Origin: a phage
Length of the DNA stretch: 64,000 nt
Reading direction: 5' to 3' (one strand)
Sequence record: PZ386965.1
Below are positions 29,158-37,766 of this stretch, piece after piece. The position numbers and the translations under genes are program-made. The stretch's first letter is position 1. Every line of letters starts with the position of its first letter. The notes below the pieces were generated by a model. It saw only the letters and a list, made by a program, of their open reading frames with translations, made no database searches and was not told where the DNA came from.

Positions 29158-29418
29158 TTAAGCTTTACCTCCAGAAATAATTCCGAAGTTGTTAAAATCG
29201 TATCCAATATCGTCAACATCTACTTTAGGACTTACTACAACATAAGCAATTTCACTACGTTTTGCATAGGTGTTGATTTCTTTACCATCGCCACCTAAGA
29301 AAGAATACCCATTACGTTTTAATGAGCCAAAGTCTTCCGCATCACCAATGAAAGCTTTAACTTTAAATTTGGGGTCTTTGGCATCTGCTTCAATGATAAA
29401 TTCTTGATACATTTTCAT
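29158..29418 (-). CDS. internal protein (capsid-targeting sequence MKMYQEFIIE)
   Basis: Trimmed to ATG with AAGGA SD; 86 aa. Confidence 0.55.
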   Translation of the reverse strand: MKMYQEFIIEADAKDPKFKVKAFIGDAEDFGSLKRNGYSFLGGDGKEINTYAKRSEIAYVVVSPKVDVDDIGYDFNNFGIISGGKA

Positions 29419-29425
29419 TTTTTCC

Positions 29426-29839
29426 TTAGTAAATTGATTTACCATAGTATTTGTACCAAGACGGCCGTTGAGCAATTTTTTCATCTAAGCGTGCTTGACT
29501 TATCGCAATGGACGCTTCGGACGGGACGTAATTATTACGAAATTCTACAGGAATGTCGGAAATATCCTGGACAGTCGTGTCCTTGATTTTGAAACCACGT
29601 TTCAAGCATTCAGCGATTAGCTCGATTTGACGTAAACGTAAAAATTCGAGTTTGTCGTAAAAGAATGTTACGTGACCTGTGCCTAAGATAAATGTTGGAG
29701 AGATTTTAAAATCCTTTACACGTTTACCGTTTTGAACATGTTTACGGACTGCACCAAATACGCGTGGTAATTCACGATACTCGGCCATAAGATGTTGGTC
29801 GGCCAGTTCAGAAACAAGTGTTAAATTGATACGGGTCAT
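29426..29839 (-). CDS. denV: endonuclease V (pyrimidine-dimer DNA glycosylase) DenV
   Basis: 137 aa from [29 protein letters not shown]; matches recalled T4 DenV. Confidence 0.95.
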
Positions 29840-29866
29840 AATTTCCTCCAAGTAGTTGATGAATGT

Positions 29867-29897: not shown

Positions 29898-30179
29898 CTA
29901 TTTTTCTGAAGCGCCTGAAATATATTTTTCAAGACGTTGTTTCATCAGCGAGCCGTTCTTAGCAATTTCTTCCGGTTTATCGCACATGCGCAACAATGCT
30001 TCAAGCTTAACGATATCACTGGTACGTTCAAATTTGCGAGTATCTATCTTACTAGCAAGTTCAGAAATACGTGCTAATAGACTTTCAGCTTCAACCAAAG
30101 CTGCACCTAGCTTAGTTGCAAATGTGTCAGTAGCTTCGTTAAGAATAGATTCTGATAAAAATTCACTATATGTTTTCAT
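29898..30179 (-). CDS. internal protein (capsid-targeting sequence [10 protein letters not shown])
   Basis: Trimmed to ATG; start codon overlaps lysozyme stop (ATGA); 93 aa. Confidence 0.55.
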
Positions 30180-30664
30180 ATATACGCTTTCCAAGTTCCT
30201 GTTTTAAATGTTGAGATTACGCGTTTCGCTCGATTAGGTGTCTGACGATACCATTTAGATTGGGCTAGATTTACTGCCGCCTCGTCCCAACGTTTCTGTT
30301 GAAGCATACGAAGAGAATTAGTAAAACCGGCAACGCCTGCTACACCCATTTGGAAGACCATATTGATCAATGCACATCGACGAACCGCATCTAAAGAATC
30401 ATATACCGGTTTAAGTTTAGCATTACCCAAGATTCCTCGAACGGCTTTATCAACGTCTTCATTAAATAGCTTTTCAGCCTCATCAAGGGTAATTGTACCG
30501 TTGCATTTACGACCGATCATTCTGTCAAGTTCAGCTTTAGCTACGGCTAAAGACGGGTTCTTTGTTACTAAATGGCCTATGCCAATCGTCCAAAAGCCTT
30601 CAGTGTCTTTATATAAAGTCAGTCTAAGACCTTCGTCATTACGAAGCATTTCAAATATATTCAT
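30176..30664 (-). CDS. e: lysozyme (endolysin, T4 e type)
   Basis: 162 aa from [32 protein letters not shown]; catalytic E11/D20/T26 context conserved; matches recalled T4 lysozyme. Confidence 0.95.
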
Positions 30665-30666
30665 AA

Positions 30667-30690
30667 TACCTCCCACGTTTATAGGAGGTA
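30667..30690 (-). promoter_or_regulatory. RBS-sequestering hairpin of gene e with embedded late-promoter-like sequence
   Basis: Perfect 7-bp stem TACCTCC/GGAGGTA with 10-nt loop; the GGAGG SD of e lies in the 3' arm; AATAAATA and TATAAACG late-promoter-like octamers overlap the 5' arm and loop. Confidence 0.6.
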
Positions 30691-30698
30691 TTTATTAC

Positions 30699-31157
30699 TT
30701 ATAGGATGGTAGTGAGCACCTTATATAACGATTTGCCCATTACATATTCCCATTGAGAAGGTTTAATTAAAGCGAATGCATCAAATTCAGGAATCTGACG
30801 TCCGTCTGGGAATGTATGATAGGAATTACAAACACTGTTTCTGAATTGCTCGTGCTCTACAGGGATGGTATATAGGAACAGATGAATATTCTTATTGTCT
30901 GAGTAATGATGTTCACCTAGGTCTTTCAGGAAGGCAGGGTCATATTGTGTAAACCCAGTTTCTTCTTCGCATTCACGAATAGCGGCTTCGATAGGAGATT
31001 CACCTGGCTCGACACGGCCTTTAGGAATATCCCACCGATGAGCTAAAGAACCTTTAGGACGAGAACCAGTTACACGCCCCATGAATAATTCTTTATCTTC
31101 GGTAAGGAAAATAATACCGGCTGATAGTTCTTTCACTTTATTTTTCTTACTCATCAT
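30699..31157 (-). CDS. nudE: Nudix hydrolase NudE
   Basis: 152 aa; Nudix box GRVEPGESPIEAAIRECEEETGF. Confidence 0.85.
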   Translation of the reverse strand: MMSKKNKVKELSAGIIFLTEDKELFMGRVTGSRPKGSLAHRWDIPKGRVEPGESPIEAAIRECEEETGFTQYDPAFLKDLGEHHYSDNKNIHLFLYTIPVEHEQFRNSVCNSYHTFPDGRQIPEFDAFALIKPSQWEYVMGKSLYKVLTTIL

Positions 31158-31383
31158 CTCGGTCCCATGATTTAGCCATTAATTCGGACATAAATTCTTC
31201 AATGCGCGTTTCTTTAGATGGACTTTCACTATTAGAGACCGCAAGTTTGTAATCTGCAATAGGACAGAACATATCAAGGTCCGTATTAAGGTCGTCTTTG
31301 ATTTTTTCTTCTGACACATCTTTATCGTATGTGTACAGATAACTATCACATGATTCTGATTTAATGTAAATTGCTATACTCAT
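31147..31383 (-). CDS. hypothetical acidic protein
   Basis: Trimmed to ATG (MSIAIYIKSE) overlapping upstream stop. Confidence 0.4.
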   Translation of the reverse strand: MSIAIYIKSESCDSYLYTYDKDVSEEKIKDDLNTDLDMFCPIADYKLAVSNSESPSKETRIEEFMSELMAKSWDRDDE

Positions 31384-31871
31384 CTCAAATTCCTGCATTC
31401 GGTAATAAAACGTTCAACTTCATTATTCTTGGCCTTTATCTTGTCTTTACGTTCCTGTAAACTACTTTTAACAAGATTAATAATGATGGCGGCGGTACCG
31501 CCGCCAATGATGCCACCAACAACACTTATGATACTAGATGCTAATAAGATAGCAATAATATCAACAAAACCGAAAGAACTCACCTTAGTACTGAAAAACC
31601 ATACCGACGGTACAAATATAATCCATCCTGTTATCCATTGGCACTTATTGAAAAACTTTTCAAGCTCAGCTTGAGTTGTTCGTATTACTTCATCGATAGG
31701 TTGATATCCATTAATGTATCTGTTCACGATAATACCTGCTGGCTGGTCGATTTTAAATTCTTGGCAAATACGTTTCACTAAGTAGGATGGACATCCTGTC
31801 CAATCTACTGAATAGTATGAAATACCTTCGTTGCCATCGTCTATATTAGACCAATATGTTTTGTTAATCAT
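31380..31871 (-). CDS. membrane protein with C-terminal ERFITECR motif
   Basis: 163 aa; two hydrophobic helices including Gly-rich IISVVGGIIGGGTAAIIINL; ends ...ERFITECRNLR. Confidence 0.45.
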   Translation of the reverse strand: MINKTYWSNIDDGNEGISYYSVDWTGCPSYLVKRICQEFKIDQPAGIIVNRYINGYQPIDEVIRTTQAELEKFFNKCQWITGWIIFVPSVWFFSTKVSSFGFVDIIAILLASSIISVVGGIIGGGTAAIIINLVKSSLQERKDKIKAKNNEVERFITECRNLR

Positions 31872-32557
31872 TACCAGCCTTCCATAGGGAATTCTAGATA
31901 AACTTGAGCGTTGACACGAATTTCATTGGTAATCTTTTTAACTCGGTCTGTATTACGAGATACACGTCCGAACCAACGCCATCCATTACTAATTGCACGA
32001 GAACCAGTGTGCCATGTTTGCCAATCAAACTGAAGAAGAGTACGGTCTGGAGCTTCCCATTTCTCTAGTTCACCTTTTTCAATTTTTTCGAGGACTTCTT
32101 TGTGCCACTGGCGATAGATAAGTTCGCCATCAGGAATCTGACTGAACTCTGCAGTTCCTGTTGCAAAATGAGTAGGACACACGTCAGCGTTAACAAGACC
32201 AAGAATATGTTCAGAATGGTAACGAGGGTTATCATAGTCAGGTTGTCCTGCAGTAATAAAGTGTTGGCCGACTGGAATATCAGGGCGAGGAACATCGTCA
32301 TGGTGGTATCCAGGAATAGCAGGATACCAACCAGGCATAAGCATATGAACACGTGAATCGAATACTACTTCATTAGTGTTCCAGTCATCAGGCAGATTCA
32401 TGATGAAAGAACGAGTGATAGGACCGCCGTTATCAAAAGCAAACTTCAGGTTGCAGTTGAAGAACATAGGCTCATTTTTAATTTTATCATTACTGATACG
32501 GCCAGCGAAACCACCTACTGCACGAGCTTGACTATTAAACACTTTAGAACTATTCAT
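31871..32557 (-). CDS. hypothetical protein
   Basis: 228 aa; His/Asp-rich central region (HHDDVP, HSEH). Confidence 0.5.
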   Translation of the reverse strand: MNSSKVFNSQARAVGGFAGRISNDKIKNEPMFFNCNLKFAFDNGGPITRSFIMNLPDDWNTNEVVFDSRVHMLMPGWYPAIPGYHHDDVPRPDIPVGQHFITAGQPDYDNPRYHSEHILGLVNADVCPTHFATGTAEFSQIPDGELIYRQWHKEVLEKIEKGELEKWEAPDRTLLQFDWQTWHTGSRAISNGWRWFGRVSRNTDRVKKITNEIRVNAQVYLEFPMEGW

Positions 32558-32558
32558 A

Positions 32559-32864
32559 TTATTTTCCTCGACATTCTTTAATGAAATTTTCTAGATTGGT
32601 AGATTCAATAGCTTTTTTACGAGCTTCAGCGTGTTCTTCTTCAGTTAATCTACGTTTAAACTTGACCCAAACATTATGGTCGAAACCTGTTGTCGCGTAT
32701 AATAACAGAGCACCAACGAATAACAAAAACGGTGATAAAAATACACAACCAGGAACACCATCCATATCGTAAGCCTTTTGTAATACTGCAACAGAAAGAG
32801 CTGCGTAAAAAGGTGATGCAAATATTGTTAAAAGACCAATTCGGTTGGTTTCGCCTAATTTCAT
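32559..32864 (-). CDS. membrane protein with C-terminal ENFIKECR motif
   Basis: 101 aa; two TM segments; ends ...LENFIKECRGK; ATG with GAGGAG SD. Confidence 0.45.
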   Translation of the reverse strand: MKLGETNRIGLLTIFASPFYAALSVAVLQKAYDMDGVPGCVFLSPFLLFVGALLLYATTGFDHNVWVKFKRRLTEEEHAEARKKAIESTNLENFIKECRGK

Positions 32865-32892
32865 AATATTCTCCTCATGTTTTAATAGGACT

Positions 32893-32921
32893 ACTATAAC
32901 ATAGTCCTATCTTGTTGTAAA
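32893..32921 (-). promoter_or_regulatory. early promoter within 28-bp palindromic promoter-stem-loop element
   Basis: Same element as 22137-22164 (ATAGGACTACTATAACATAGTCCTATC); TTTACA-N17-TATAGT. Confidence 0.5.
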
Positions 32922-32934
32922 CAGTTTTGTGAAG

Positions 32935-33891
32935 TTATTTGAAAGGTTTTACCATATGAAAATTTTGTTTGAAACGCTTGACGTAATCGTCGTGTCCTAA
33001 GCTTTGATACATACTTACTACTTTGCCATAGTTCTCCCAGGCATACTCACGGAACCAGCCTGATGTGATTGAAGTACAGACCTTTTCTAATGCCATCATA
33101 AAACTATCACGAGGATGGATTTCAAAGCCATTAGGAATCTGAGAACGTTCTAATGCTAGTACACATGATTCTTCGTATACGCCGGCCAATTTGACCATTT
33201 CCGGTAATGATTCGAACTTCTCGCGTGAGGTCATGACTTCAGAACCATCTTTCATATAAAATGTATACGCTGGACGGTCTGTTAGTGCAATGGCTTCGTG
33301 AATAGTATCATGGTCATACGTATAGATGTCATCTTTAAAGAATGCGCTTTTAGAAGTGTCAAGAACCGGGTGAGCATAGTTCAAGGTTTCTTTCTGGCGT
33401 TTCAGCATAATTTCAGTAAGTTCATCGTCCAGTGTAACACCTTTACCACGAAGATACTGAATATGGTTCATAGTCTTTAAAAAGAATGGATTATTTTTCT
33501 TGAAACGATGAGACATCTTAATTGCAAGACACATCTCAGGAGTTGCCCAGTAAAACCCGTTCAAACGGTCTTTAGTCAAATTTTTCTTGGCGTATTTTAA
33601 AAGGTCATAAGAAGACGTGAAATCTTCAGGAGTGAGTTCACCGACTAATTCACGGACATTAGTGATTGCCGGAACAATGTATGCTTCAAAATGAGTTTCG
33701 CGTCCGTTATGGAAGCATTTGAAAACTTGGACATCAGGGTTATCTTGGTGAACATATACACCCATCATTTGATTTTTGAATACATTCCAAGAACCTTGGT
33801 CCGCAATAAAGTCCCAATCACTATTTTTGATAGCGCTAGAATCAATAAGGCCGTGATAGTGAAGTGCACGAGAACCAATAACCAACATCAT
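32935..33891 (-). CDS. hypothetical protein
   Basis: 318-aa ORF. Confidence 0.5.
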   Translation of the reverse strand: MMLVIGSRALHYHGLIDSSAIKNSDWDFIADQGSWNVFKNQMMGVYVHQDNPDVQVFKCFHNGRETHFEAYIVPAITNVRELVGELTPEDFTSSYDLLKYAKKNLTKDRLNGFYWATPEMCLAIKMSHRFKKNNPFFLKTMNHIQYLRGKGVTLDDELTEIMLKRQKETLNYAHPVLDTSKSAFFKDDIYTYDHDTIHEAIALTDRPAYTFYMKDGSEVMTSREKFESLPEMVKLAGVYEESCVLALERSQIPNGFEIHPRDSFMMALEKVCTSITSGWFREYAWENYGKVVSMYQSLGHDDYVKRFKQNFHMVKPFK

Positions 33892-33916
33892 AATAATTTC
33901 CTCGAATTTAGATTAC

Positions 33917-34168
33917 TTAAATTTCGCGACATGCGATATTATATTCATCCCAGAGGTCGTCATGTGAAGCCTCTACCAATGGAACGATTGTGCCGTTTAT
34001 GTCTTCATTATAAGGGCAAATTGTACAGTGCGCATCTTCGAATCGGATGCCTTTGTGTTCAGATTTTTTATAACGCATATCGAATATCTTTGCAAACTTT
34101 TCACGAGTAATAGTTTTAGCAACTACTTCGGTTCCGATACTTTCGTAATAAATCATTGTAGACTCCAT
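33917..34168 (-). CDS. hypothetical protein
   Basis: 83-aa ORF; CTIC...C pair. Confidence 0.4.
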   Translation of the reverse strand: MESTMIYYESIGTEVVAKTITREKFAKIFDMRYKKSEHKGIRFEDAHCTICPYNEDINGTIVPLVEASHDDLWDEYNIACREI

Positions 34169-34184
34169 TTAATTTGATAGGACT

Positions 34185-34213
34185 ACTATAACATAGCCCT
34201 ATCTTGTTGTAAA
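34185..34213 (-). promoter_or_regulatory. early promoter within 28-bp palindromic promoter-stem-loop element (1 mismatch)
   Basis: GATAGGACTACTATAACATAGCCCTATC; TTTACA-N17-TATAGT. Confidence 0.5.
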
Positions 34214-34218
34214 CTGTT

Positions 34219-34416
34219 TTAGCAAGAATAACTAGATGATACCCAGCCTTGAACAGTAATACTATTATTTGATAACGAGATTGCGTCCTGGAGATTAAGA
34301 CCTGCGTTATCTTCAATCCACAATGTAACTTCTTCACGCTCTTCGGTTGCAATCTGGAACAGGTTTTCTAGGGCAGCTACTGCTGTACGTACAGCACAAT
34401 CTAATTCACGAGACAT
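34219..34416 (-). CDS. small protein, C-terminal GWVSSSYSC (paralog family member 3)
   Basis: 65 aa; shares terminal G-x-W-V-S-S-S-x-x-C with the two genes upstream. Confidence 0.45.
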   Translation of the reverse strand: MSRELDCAVRTAVAALENLFQIATEEREEVTLWIEDNAGLNLQDAISLSNNSITVQGWVSSSYSC

Positions 34417-34425
34417 ATGATTTCC

Positions 34426-34698
34426 TTAACAAGTGTGAGAAGATGCAACCCAACCGCCATCTTCAAGGCTCAAGTTGTAGTCGTATTGGTAAACATCGGC
34501 CCATTCAGCATAACCGTTTTTTGTACAACGTTCAAGATCGGCTTTAAGATGTCCTGGCGAATGATAGGTTCCACCCATGCCATAAGCTGGATACAAGTCG
34601 AATGTTGTGTTTTGTTTATCAGCAATTTCTTTGGCAGCCTCAATAGCTGCATAGATTTTTGCTACGGCTTCAGCCAGTTCGGTTTGTTCTTTAGACAT
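34426..34698 (-). CDS. small protein, C-terminal GGWVASSHTC (paralog family member 2)
   Basis: 90 aa; MSK start; YPAYGMGGTY core; terminal Cys. Confidence 0.45.
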   Translation of the reverse strand: MSKEQTELAEAVAKIYAAIEAAKEIADKQNTTFDLYPAYGMGGTYHSPGHLKADLERCTKNGYAEWADVYQYDYNLSLEDGGWVASSHTC

Positions 34699-34707
34699 AA
34701 TGATTCC

Positions 34708-35013
34708 TTAGCACAACGCAGAAGACGAAACCCAAGCACCTTCAGTAATAACGTAACCATTACCTTCACGCTTAACGTCGCCACCATTATTTTCAATTTC
34801 ATTTTTCATCCACTGGGATACGATTTCACCCTTAGGATAATAAGTACGACCGCTACCATAATCACCTACAGAAAACGATACAGCGTATTGGTCTGCGATC
34901 TTTGTTGCTTCTTCTTCGATACGTTCAGCTTGATTCAGAAGTTTATAAATTGCATCTGAAGCGGATTTGGCATCATTAAACTCTGGTACTTTAATTTCAA
35001 TAATCTTACTCAT
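34708..35013 (-). CDS. small protein, C-terminal GAWVSSSALC (paralog family member 1)
   Basis: 101 aa; MSK start; DYGSGRTYYPKGE core; terminal Cys. Confidence 0.45.
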   Translation of the reverse strand: MSKIIEIKVPEFNDAKSASDAIYKLLNQAERIEEEATKIADQYAVSFSVGDYGSGRTYYPKGEIVSQWMKNEIENNGGDVKREGNGYVITEGAWVSSSALC

Positions 35014-35369
35014 TTTCTACATTCCTTAATAAAGTTTTCGATTGTTTCATTTTCACGTCTAGCTAGGAGTTCATTATAACTAATCATTTGAGAAGCGTAA
35101 ACCTTTTTATTTTTCTTGTTATGGTTTATAAAATCGTAGTAAAAATAGACTACAGTACAAAAGGATGCTATTGATGCAAAGGCTTGGGTATACCGTAAGT
35201 CCTGCCATTGGTCTGTGAATCCACCGGTGTTACCTATAAATCCTAACACAACGCCATCAATAAGAAATCCAACTAATCCAAAGGCAAATCCCATGCCAAT
35301 ACTCATAATAAAAATTAGAATGTTCTCGCCAAGAGAAGGCCATACGGTTAAGAGTTGAGGCTTTTGCAT
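35010..35369 (-). CDS. membrane protein with C-terminal ENFIKECR motif
   Basis: 119 aa; multiple TM segments; ends ...ETIENFIKECRK; stop overlaps next ATG. Confidence 0.45.
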   Translation of the reverse strand: MQKPQLLTVWPSLGENILIFIMSIGMGFAFGLVGFLIDGVVLGFIGNTGGFTDQWQDLRYTQAFASIASFCTVVYFYYDFINHNKKNKKVYASQMISYNELLARRENETIENFIKECRK

Positions 35370-35773
35370 CTTATTTCCTTAACGAATTCCATAGCTTCTT
35401 CATATTCATACTTTTTAACAGCTTCAACATACTGAGCTTGGGCTTTTGCGCACTGAACTTTCCACTCGCGAACTCGAGCTCTGTGATGACGGCCTTGGTG
35501 CCAATATCCTGCCCAATTAATAGGCATTAATAAAAACGGTACAATAAGTGGTGCGACGAACATTAATGAAAACGCTGCATCAGACGATATAACTTTATTG
35601 GAATCTAAAATAGCTCCTATAATCATAAAGATTAAAAATGCTAAAGCTAAAATAGGGCCAAATAGTACTTCGTTTGGGATTAATTTACGTTTGTATTCGT
35701 ATGCCCAGGGCTTAATTGGCATGTACAGGGTTGGCTTTGACATATTCTCTACATTCCATAATAAATTGCTCAA
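35348..35773 (-). CDS. membrane protein with C-terminal EFVKEIRCK motif
   Basis: 141 aa; two TM segments; His/Arg-rich cytoplasmic loop. Confidence 0.45.
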   Translation of the reverse strand: MSNLLWNVENMSKPTLYMPIKPWAYEYKRKLIPNEVLFGPILALAFLIFMIIGAILDSNKVISSDAAFSLMFVAPLIVPFLLMPINWAGYWHQGRHHRARVREWKVQCAKAQAQYVEAVKKYEYEEAMEFVKEIRCKSLNS

Positions 35774-36308
35774 GGATTAAATTGTTAGTGAAATTAGGAC
35801 TAACAACCATAGTTTCATAAAGCGCATCAATAGCACTTAAAGCATCAACTCTTTTAAGCAAAGGCTTGCCTTCATACATAGTTTCAGAATCGATGATTAA
35901 CGTAAAGTAATATTTTTTATTATCGACTAGAACTTCTGTATCGATATAAAACATATTAGACCTCAGAAGCTTATCTCTAAAACCATAATAATCTTCTGAA
36001 CGTTCGCTGATATATTCCCATTCAGTGTTTAAACAACAAACAGACCATGTAGGAGCAACGAAATCAGTGAATCTAATATCATGGTCTGCAACTAGTTTAG
36101 CAATAGCTCCGATATCATGAATCATAATACCTGGGGCTAATAAAGATTTTCGGCGATTTGCGTATTCAGTTGTCTCATAAGAAGCTGACCAGTACCATTT
36201 ACGTCCAGTTGCAACATATCGTAATGAATCAACTAAAGACGTAGGTGGATTTACCTTATCTCGGAACTCTTCGAACATTGAGTCAATATCATTATTTTGG
36301 TTTCGCAT
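35712..36308 (-). CDS. hypothetical protein with EQFIMECR motif
   Basis: Trimmed to ATG (MRNQNNDIDS) with AGGAG SD; soluble; motif 8 aa from C-terminus. Confidence 0.45.
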   Translation of the reverse strand: MRNQNNDIDSMFEEFRDKVNPPTSLVDSLRYVATGRKWYWSASYETTEYANRRKSLLAPGIMIHDIGAIAKLVADHDIRFTDFVAPTWSVCCLNTEWEYISERSEDYYGFRDKLLRSNMFYIDTEVLVDNKKYYFTLIIDSETMYEGKPLLKRVDALSAIDALYETMVVSPNFTNNLILEQFIMECREYVKANPVHAN

Positions 36309-36326
36309 GTTAACTCCTTTATTATC

Positions 36327-36349
36327 CAAAAGGAGGACCGGAGTCCTCC
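36327..36349 (-). terminator. intrinsic terminator candidate
   Basis: 7-bp stem GGAGGAC/GTCCTCC with 4-nt loop followed by T4 on minus strand, just after stop of 36358..36951. Confidence 0.45.
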
Positions 36350-36357
36350 GTATTATT

Positions 36358-36951
36358 TTATTTCAAAGAGTTAATATATTCTTGTACATCAGCAGAAGTG
36401 GTTTCGACACCGGCTGGAGTACCATTGAACGTTTCAACACGAGTCAGAGTGTCTTCGATATCAACCTTGGTCAGTGCAGCAATTTCGATCACATCATCGG
36501 CCGTAGAGATACCAAGGGCATTGGCTGCTCGAGTTTCGCGGATGTATTCAAGTTTGATTGCCAGATTCTGACGAGCATCGTCAAGTTCAACCACCTTACG
36601 AGCAATTTCAATTCGCATAGCGGCATAACCGTCAGCTTTTGTATTAAGTTGTTCGGCAGTTCGACGATACAGAAGACCAAGCTTAGCATGCATGGTAACA
36701 TCTTGTCCTTCAGCCAGGAGCTTACGAATTTCACGTTCCTTAGAAGCGGCTTGCTTGTTCTTTTCATTAACAAGTTCGCGAATACGTTTTTCTTCATTAA
36801 TAGATTTAACAGAAGCCGTTTTTAGTTCTTTGATTTGGGTAATCAACTTATCTGCGGCTGCGTTATACTGTTCTTCGACAGTCAGATTTTTAGCCATAGC
36901 AGTACCCAGTTTAGTGCGGATGAATTCAACAAGTTTCTTCAGTGTGTTCAT
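36358..36951 (-). CDS. coiled-coil protein
   Basis: Trimmed to ATG ([10 protein letters not shown]); 197 aa, heptad-rich Ala/Glu/Lys/Arg composition. Confidence 0.45.
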
Positions 36952-37555: not shown

Positions 37556-37601
37556 TTTGTTTTCCTCTTGATTTGATGTGATTACTATAACATAAACTTA
37601 C

Positions 37602-37766
37602 TTAGATGTAAATTATTTCAACGTCACCTTTAGCTGCTTTATAACCTTCAGCCCAAGATACAACAGAGTTTTTATCTGAGGATTCAAATTCAGGCATTGG
37701 ACTTTCACCAATATTCACACAGTATGTTTCTTCATTTTCATCGAACCAAATAATTAAAGTAGTCAT
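37602..37766 (-). CDS. small hypothetical protein
   Basis: Trimmed to ATG (MTTLIIWFDENEE) with GAGGAG SD; ORF-track extension overlaps promoter. Confidence 0.4.
   Translation of the reverse strand: MTTLIIWFDENEETYCVNIGESPMPEFESSDKNSVVSWAEGYKAAKGDVEIIYI

Follow-up and report, generated by a model that had tools for sequence, protein, structure and literature searches.

A window of 64,000 nucleotides of phage DNA (sequence record PZ386965.1) carries five minus-strand genes whose products end in a related short peptide of the general form Φ-x-x-F-[IV]-x-x-C-[R/K], followed by basic residues, in which V, I, S or M takes the place of Cys in the lineage of gene e.4. This motif is an undescribed but conventional feature, namely a conserved C-terminal protein motif which defines a phage-specific set of paralogues. 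With a probability of about 0.6, the whole is best read as a protein-level C-terminal module, predicted to form an amphipathic helix and borne by a probable paralogue set, which would serve in docking or assembly on the cytoplasmic side of the membrane.

The five genes and their locus

Judged by its sequence, the window belongs to Mosigvirus, that is, to an RB69-like T-even phage, and positions 31000-36500 show about 95-97% identity to Mosigvirus (RB69-like) phages such as Mizar, Shf125875 and PhAPEC2. The names of the five motif genes were taken from the PhAPEC2 and T4 annotations. Four of them are homologues of T4 e.5, e.4, e.3 and e.2, the fifth is ORF133c, which occurs only in Mosigvirus, and all are situated between e.6 (36358-36951) and nudE/e (30176-31157). 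The genes e.5, e.4, e.3 and e.2 are contiguous in T4, whereas e.3 and e.2 of Mosigvirus are set apart by about 3 kb (ORF139c to ORF132c); the region counts among the hyperplastic, mosaic parts of T4-type genomes. All five open reading frames (ORFs) reported in the initial annotation, which was made from the letters of the DNA, are present on the minus strand, with tails as described there apart from small corrections:

35712-36308, minus strand: e.5 homologue, 198 residues, soluble, phrog_2607, tail ...LILEQFIMECREYVKANPVHAN
35348-35743, minus strand: e.4 homologue, 131 residues, two transmembrane segments, phrog_2604, tail ...EEAMEFVKEIRCKSLNS
35010-35369, minus strand: e.3 homologue, 119 residues, membrane protein, phrog_2330, tail ...ETIENFIKECRK
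32559-32864, minus strand: RB69 ORF133c-like protein, 101 residues, two transmembrane segments, Mosigvirus only, phrog_9798, tail ...NLENFIKECRGK
31380-31871, minus strand: e.2 homologue, long form, 163 residues, phrog_2203, tail ...EVERFITECRNLR

The motif codons of e.5 occupy 35748-35771, and 11 residues remain to the C-terminus (tail ...EQFIMECREYVKANPVHAN). In e.4 the variant FVKEIR is encoded at 35369-35386 and is followed by the six residues CKSLNS (tail ...MEFVKEIRCKSLNS); the start of this gene is most likely the ATG at 35743 and not that at 35773, by homology with the annotated start of T4 e.4. The motif lies at 35016-35039 in e.3, at 32568-32591 in ORF133c and at 31392-31415 in e.2, the long form of which consists of an N-terminal soluble domain, a transmembrane hairpin and then the tail. 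The motif had been described as running directly into the stop codon and the next gene. Indeed, the junctions e.3/ORF139c (35010-35013) and e.2/ORF130c (31380-31383) are ATGA overlaps, and ORF133c is joined to ORF132c by TAA-T-ATG, but 1-3 residues precede the stop.

Statistical support and occurrence in T4

The strict form E.F[IV].E[CI]R has exactly four matches in the six reading frames of the 64 kb, all of them in these genes and near C-termini, against 0.001 expected from residue-shuffled ORFs. The core [FW][IV]..C[RK] is likewise matched four times among the 243 ORFs of at least 40 residues, each time not more than 11 residues from the C-terminus, compared with 0.18 matches in residue-shuffled ORFs (Poisson P ~4e-5). 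A chance origin of the motif was ruled out by this shuffling together with whole-genome scans. The family-like motif suspected from the start is real in that sense, but the junction cassette suggested along with it does not account for the conserved F, I/V, C and R.

Within the complete genome of T4, matches to the core motif are confined to e.3 (...KEFVIDCRKIK) and e.5 (...EKFVKECREYVKAITIPSK), and T4 e.4 ends in ...MKFVKESRCKSQS, which gives T4 copies in all three of these genes; T4 e.2, a short form, lacks the tail and consists of the N-terminal domain alone. A hidden Markov model (HMM) of the tail revealed no further member among the ORFs of T4 and of the window, the members scoring 23-28 bits and the next best ORF 6.

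Distribution among T4-like phages

The survey of the spread covered the region downstream of e.6, taken from other T4-like genera. Altogether, 33 copies of the motif were found in 10 genera, all in the e.6-to-e cluster and always downstream of e.6: five in this window, three each in T4 (Tequatrovirus), Dhakavirus and Tegunavirus, four each in Gaprivervirus, Kanagawavirus and a Karamvirus-like Enterobacter phage, five in Jiaodavirus, and one each in an Aeromonas Biquartavirus and a Pseudotevenvirus. The Pseudotevenvirus copy is the variant KFIHSCKK, placed 25 residues before the end, and across all copies the distance to the true C-terminus is 0-25 residues. The carriers comprise e.5-type soluble proteins (180-316 residues), proteins with a hairpin of two transmembrane segments (84-197 residues) and small soluble proteins of 93-102 residues, the last of which occur in Karamvirus-like, Kanagawavirus, Jiaodavirus and Tegunavirus phages.

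These carriers are spread over at least 13 PHROG families, and in Pfam, homologues of e.5 and of e.4 bear distinct precomputed labels, PF26876 and PF26873, respectively. Sequence searches of Pfam, NCBIfam, PHROGs and PDB returned no shared or named family for the carriers. The ORF133c-like protein has relatives in only seven clusters among 5.8 billion proteins, each at least 77% identical, and a profile search with e.5 of 1.84 billion representative proteins gave only eight relatives, none of them informative. At the place equivalent to that of ORF133c, upstream of the ORF132c homologue, L006 (7829-8260) and L009 (11561-11968) encode transmembrane proteins which end in a degenerate motif, ...GFAGEIKKVTGGHKLV and ...GFASQVRK, respectively.

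Selection on the peptide

Over the 33 copies, Phe is encoded by TTT 23 times and by TTC 8 times, Cys by TGT and TGC 13 times each, and Arg by AGA (11), AGG (3), CGA (6), CGT (6) and CGC (3); six codons are in use at the Ile/Val positions, and synonymous variation occurs at every conserved motif codon. Because Arg switches between the AGR and CGN codon families and TGT and TGC are used equally, these data strongly indicate that selection acts on the peptide rather than on a DNA or RNA element. Within families, the pairwise identity of the nine motif columns was 0.47-0.63 as compared with 0.25-0.37 elsewhere. Across the 10 genera the motif stays conserved, and the identity of the remainder of each protein falls to 20-35%. 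Moreover, the motif is kept where the next ATG is 14-71 nucleotides (nt) away, as is the case for e.5-type proteins and for the soluble proteins of Jiaodavirus and Tegunavirus. Exact nucleotide runs common to the copies of the window reach only about 6-8 nt, and the nucleotide conservation of the motif is not enough for homologous recombination. An explanation by a copied DNA junction alone, named in the initial annotation as the outcome that would speak against it, is contradicted by the freedom of the synonymous sites and by the shortness of these runs.

Short repeated sequences at gene boundaries are known from the hyperplastic regions of T4-type phages in the form of the promoter-early stem-loop (PeSL) shuffling cassettes (Arbiol 2010, PMC2839356; Comeau 2014, PMC4122927), and copies resembling them flank modules in the locus studied here. 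PeSLs, however, are intergenic, consist of an early promoter with a stem-loop and are conserved as nucleotides, whereas the motif lies within ORFs, is devoid of promoter hexamers, is conserved as a peptide and varies at synonymous sites.

The codon pair GAA TGY, which encodes E-C, also creates an out-of-frame ATG at 35019-35024 and 35751-35756 (minus strand) and at 31395-31400. In e.3 and e.5 this ATG forms the start-stop ATG TAG, and in e.2 it opens the frame of ORF130c five codons ahead of the likely start. As GAA is the preferred Glu codon, this out-of-frame ATG is probably incidental.

Gene junctions and ribosome-binding sites

Not more than 10 nt separate the Arg codon from the next ATG in 24 of the 33 copies. 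At the junctions of the motif genes in the window, stop and start overlap or abut (by 22 nt at e.4/e.3 and by 32 nt at e.5/e.4), and a Shine-Dalgarno (SD) sequence is embedded at suitable spacing in the upstream coding sequence, both of which are marks of translational coupling. The K-E codons AAGGAA of e.4 (35375-35380) serve e.3 (ATG at 35369) as SD; AAGGAA at 35022-35027 in e.3 and AGGAA in the R-N codons of e.2 are the SDs of the genes that follow, and in ORF133c the SD of the next gene, CGAGGAAA, lies within the R-G-K codons, with the next ATG at 32557.

This arrangement extends to the wider set. For ATGs at -1 to +5 nt relative to the Arg codon, the best anti-SD pairing falls in most copies on motif codons 3-4 (for example AAGGAA, GAGGAA, AAAGGA, AGGAGC and AAGGAGGT), with duplex energies of -5.4 to -11.9 kcal/mol; there are four exceptions with little or no SD, namely the Mosigvirus e.5 (-3.3) and the FI[KR]NVR proteins of MY742/PEi20 (-2.7). 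With the ATG at +8 to +10 nt, the pairing moves to the Arg codon and the next one (CGAGGA, AGGAAT, AGAGGT), and where the ATG is far away, codons 3-4 are not SD-like (they encode D-Q, A-E, K-Y and others). The SD strength of codons 3-4 differed between near and far copies (Mann-Whitney p=0.007). At tight junctions, the variable motif codons, or Arg and the next codon, serve as the SD of the downstream gene. The residues K-E, E-E, K-G and R-G are frequent because their codons double as SD in the stop-to-start packing; the variable positions of the peptide, where the SD is located, are thus moulded by the downstream ribosome-binding site.

Coupled overlapping genes are common in T4 and in compact phages, and e.3, e.2 and many orthologues resemble them in ending in ATGA with an SD in the last codons. 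As far as the proposal of a junction or translational-coupling cassette is concerned, the overlap with the SD is real, but coupling covers the variable K-E, E-E, K-G and R-G and leaves the invariant F, I/V, C and R unexplained. The module shuffling which the motif had been supposed to mediate was not seen: the exact runs are short, and the breakpoints of the e.3 deletion in the natural Mosigvirus LF82-1 are not at the motif. A stronger form of this idea would hold that the motif is a nucleotide cassette, made of SD, spacer and ATG context, copied from junction to junction for coupling and as microhomology for shuffling, with the peptide as a by-product. The closeness of the next ATG, the downstream SD inside or directly after the motif, the agreement of the window e.3 and ORF133c tails at 20 of 24 nt and the hyperplastic, mosaic character of the region are all in line with it. 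Yet it is made highly improbable by the free synonymous sites with Arg in two codon families, by the conservation of F, I, C and R while the SD sits on variable positions, by the unchanged motif at distances of 14-71 nt where codons 3-4 lose their SD character, and by the fact that the known shuffling PeSLs are separate and intergenic.

Kinship of the carriers and modularity

Profile comparison by HHalign linked e.3 with e.4 (P=9.5e-8, 45 columns, from the end of the second transmembrane segment to the motif), with e.2 (P=7.5e-7), with ORF133c (P=5.7e-6) and with a Tegunavirus pair (P=2.7e-5, 44 columns); e.2 was linked with JY1_8580, a Jiaodavirus protein of 98 residues, over 77 columns covering hairpin and tail (P=1.5e-5). 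Reversed-sequence controls gave P>=0.005. Among the membrane families of the window, the homology spans the C-terminal 19-45 columns, and the view that these sequences are otherwise unrelated does not hold for them. The comparisons thus firmly support a homologous tail in e.4, e.3, the C-terminal half of e.2 and ORF133c, and because the tail, in places the hairpin together with the tail, is homologous among the membrane members, these are probably diverged paralogues.

The module is found on its own in some proteins and missing from others: T4 e.2 consists of the N-terminal domain only, while the e.2 of LF82-1 and JY1_8580 consist of hairpin and tail alone. In LF82-1, e.2 (L003 8288-8635) is without its N-terminal 47 codons, and most of e.3 is deleted (L003 4990-5090), the final 30 e.3 codons remaining before ORF139c.

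The e.5-type proteins form a superfamily of their own, within which E5 and the Dhakavirus/Gaprivervirus orf125 are related over 99 columns (P=7e-8), and PHROGs 2607, 13418 and 16253 are mutually linked, with a weak link to the Aeromonas protein. Compared with the membrane family, e.5 and the small soluble proteins are similar over 8-15 columns only (P ~1e-4 to 1e-3), and no PHROG or Pfam family is shared.

Predicted structure and topology

Hydropathy predicts two transmembrane segments in e.4, ORF133c and e.2, one to two in e.3 and none in e.5, which bears out the description of four of the five carriers as membrane proteins; these are small, and about two such segments were obtained for each. 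The N- and C-flanks of the membrane carriers are rich in K/R, and their loops are acidic and poor in K/R; by the positive-inside rule, these proteins are therefore predicted to have both termini inside (N-in/C-in) and a cytoplasmic tail. Two transmembrane segments, this orientation and a helical cytoplasmic tail would thus form a common architecture at the level of prediction.

The hydrophobic motif columns are at i-3, i, i+1 and i+4, and the hydrophobic moment peaks at 100-110 degrees. The motif is accordingly predicted to be one face of an amphipathic helix, after which Arg and further basic residues follow. Since V, I or M replaces it in e.4-type proteins, the motif Cys is probably present as a small hydrophobic side chain and not for its reactivity. 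In the AlphaFold2 (AF2) model of e.4 (predicted local distance difference test, pLDDT, 75), the first transmembrane helix comprises residues 24-48, the second runs as a long helix, 54-111, entering the cytoplasm, and a short low-confidence helix at 114-122 bears the motif; in the mediocre model of e.5 (pLDDT 60), the motif is in the last helix, 177-192.

Some of these features could also mean that the motif works only in cis, as the conserved end of a homologous tail which packs on its own hairpin or membrane or sets topology or stability. The descent of the entire tail among the membrane members, the amphipathic pattern with its basic end, and the V, I or M for Cys in e.4-type proteins, which suggests plain hydrophobic packing, are consistent with such a role. 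However, the same motif also ends soluble proteins of other folds (the e.5-type and the 93-102-residue carriers), and packing in cis is hard to envisage there because unrelated folds would need the same helix; in addition, AF2 does not confidently dock the terminal helix of e.4 on its hairpin. A role in cis alone is therefore regarded as unlikely.

A Foldseek comparison of the AF2 e.5 model with the PDB gave no credible fold match (best TM-score 0.16). The five top PDB matches were small alarmone synthetases (RelQ/SAS1, RelP), with full-length alignments and a best E=3.7e-3; at TM-scores of 0.16, the alarmone-synthetase likeness of e.5 may be a very weak lead at most.

Possible function

In the preferred reading, the motif is a C-terminal module of two kinds of protein from the e.6-to-nudE/e cluster, the soluble e.5-type protein and a probably paralogous set of fast-diverging small hairpin proteins of the inner membrane, to which e.4, e.3, ORF133c and e.2 (with its C-terminal half) belong. 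At the cytoplasmic membrane face, the helix would mediate interaction: either the co-expressed carriers bundle together, with e.5 docking onto the hairpin proteins, or all of them bind one common partner. The family may have grown by tandem duplication or by reuse of the hairpin and tail as a module. In this specific form, the docking or assembly element is put forward tentatively, at somewhat less than even odds. Slightly less confidence still is attached to the proposal of a phage short linear motif by which e.5 and up to 4-5 hairpin proteins per genome dock on one hub or form a hetero-oligomeric inner-membrane complex early in infection, which must be considered doubtful; if true, the genes e.2-e.5 would make up a multi-subunit early system of T4-like phages that has gone unrecognised until now.

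The concept has a parallel in T4, in which the C-terminal peptide of gp43 and gp55 binds the gp45 clamp, so that a short tail of unrelated proteins docks on one hub. Read from the genome, these tails are ...SLDFLFG in gp43 and ...SLDFLYEAND in gp55. The S-L-D-F-L-[FY] of the clamp-binding tails differs from Φ-x-x-F-I-x-x-C-R, and most carriers of the motif are membrane proteins; the possibility that the motif is itself a clamp-binding tail was rejected on account of this difference in sequence. The initial annotation had named the membrane carriers as candidates for superinfection exclusion or lysis timing. Imm, Sp, RI, RIII and holin T, which serve superinfection exclusion and lysis control, are, like the motif carriers, small early or nonessential membrane-associated T-even proteins, but no sequence similarity to them was detected, and the site of action of RI and Sp is the periplasm, whereas the tails carrying the motif are predicted to be cytoplasmic. 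The HMM of the C-terminal module found no similarity among the other T4 ORFs, including imm, sp and rI (best non-member 6 bits).

Two further explanations have to be considered. C-terminal tags of such size are established, as in ssrA and the MuA tail, and a C-terminal, cytoplasmic, basic-ended peptide on early proteins might likewise be read by a protease, a chaperone or an insertion factor, as a degron that sets the time at which early proteins are removed or for membrane targeting. This is very improbable, as there is no resemblance to known ClpX or SspB C-motifs, a distance of 0-25 residues from the C-terminus is unusual for degrons recognised at the end, and the soluble carriers need no membrane targeting. 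Even less probable, and close to negligible, is a cis-acting nascent peptide tuning termination and re-initiation at tight junctions: in most membrane members the motif does adjoin a stop/start overlap, but its spacing to the stop is not fixed, and it also precedes uncoupled gaps of 30-70 nt.

Several observations weigh against the proposed docking module. We infer docking or assembly between the carriers from sequence and models, and the family alignments are shallow, with 2-5 sequences each. The similarity of e.5 to the membrane proteins spans 8-14 motif columns alone (P ~4e-4 to 1e-3), and common descent of the two is for this reason not established; the Aeromonas and Cronobacter proteins at the e.5 position have a weak link, or none, to e.5. 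AF2 models the motif with low confidence (pLDDT about 60 in e.5 and below 50 in e.4), which would fit a partner-dependent element and equally simple ignorance. The e.4 lineage is without the Cys, which means that a role of this residue is not universal, and at least e.3 is dispensable, because it is largely deleted in some natural Mosigviruses.

The genes e.2, e.3, e.4 and e.5 are conserved early genes of T4 which have been without a function for decades in the best-studied phage, and a literature search on the gene names e.2-e.6 found no paper mentioning them. The hyperplastic region that contains them tends to hold anti-defence and host-takeover genes. Through the selected peptide which they share, e.2-e.5 become linked, together with at least 13 PHROG families from 10 genera, in what is probably one functional set. 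Dual coding, too, is seen here in a clean form: conserved peptide residues are interleaved with variable ones whose codons act as the ribosome-binding site of the next gene, and this matters for the recoding or engineering of T-even genomes.

Promoters and expression context

Two elements accompany the motif genes directly:

36332-36349, minus strand: terminator-like hairpin between e.6 and e.5, with a terminator annotated at the same place in PhAPEC2
32893-32921, minus strand: PeSL-like TTTACA-N17-TATAGT in a stem-loop, directly upstream of ORF133c

Near-identical PeSL-like copies are found at 34185-34213 and 37584-37612 (minus strand), and the PeSL consensus is TTTACW-N17-TAYWAT (PMC4122927). 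Taken over the wider spans 32885-32930, 34185-34235 and 37584-37612, the repeats read GTTTACA-N17-TATAGT, and the -10 box of the two that were read directly is inside an imperfect hairpin (ataggRctatgttatagtagtcctat). The copies bracket the ORF135c/134c module and precede ORF133c.

Early-promoter-like sequences of the T4 type head three units, the e.6 unit, ORF135c/134c and ORF133c-ORF132c-e.2-ORF130c-nudE, and the genes within the units overlap stop-to-start; immediately before e.5, e.4 and e.3, no promoter could be found. Three transcription units contain motif genes, and such a sequence precedes two of them. Owing to these early-promoter-like sequences and the stop/start overlaps, the motif genes are probably early, co-transcribed and translationally coupled.

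Neighbouring features and minor observations

A plus-strand ORF of 60 residues (29404-29586) ending in ...QECRK was rejected as a spurious ECR match, being antisense to denV (29426-29851, minus strand). In OLB35 (L005 5000-5360), a duplicated chimera of the e.4 and e.3 tails is present, but the record is flagged UNVERIFIED and looks like a mixed assembly, and it was not used as evidence. A homologue of e.4 (86% identical) is deposited on a 508-bp contig as 'sulfurtransferase [Xanthomonas pisi DSM 18956]', which is most likely phage contamination combined with misannotation; the label 'sulfurtransferase' is carried for e.3 and e.4 in several phage records.

The ORF132c-like protein (31871-32557, 228 residues) has no Pfam or NCBIfam match. 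Its last 32 residues, GRVSRNTDRVKKITNEIRVNAQVYLEFPMEGW, are nearly invariant over Mosigvirus, Dhakavirus, Gaprivervirus, Karamvirus-like and Kanagawavirus phages, far above its neighbours.

Directly downstream of e.3, at 34219-35013 (minus strand), a second tandem family of paralogues is encoded, comprising small soluble proteins of 65-118 residues. It is also present at L004 5351-6593, L006 4966-6589, L009 8716-10330 and L012 8553-9576, with 3-6 proteins per genome (phrog_899, phrog_4882) and the exact end G-W-V-[SA]-S-S-x-x-C. The ends in the window are GAWVSSSALC, GGWVASSHTC and QGWVSSSYSC, variants are WFSSSMSC, WYPSSC and WQPSSC, and the terminal Cys is invariant.

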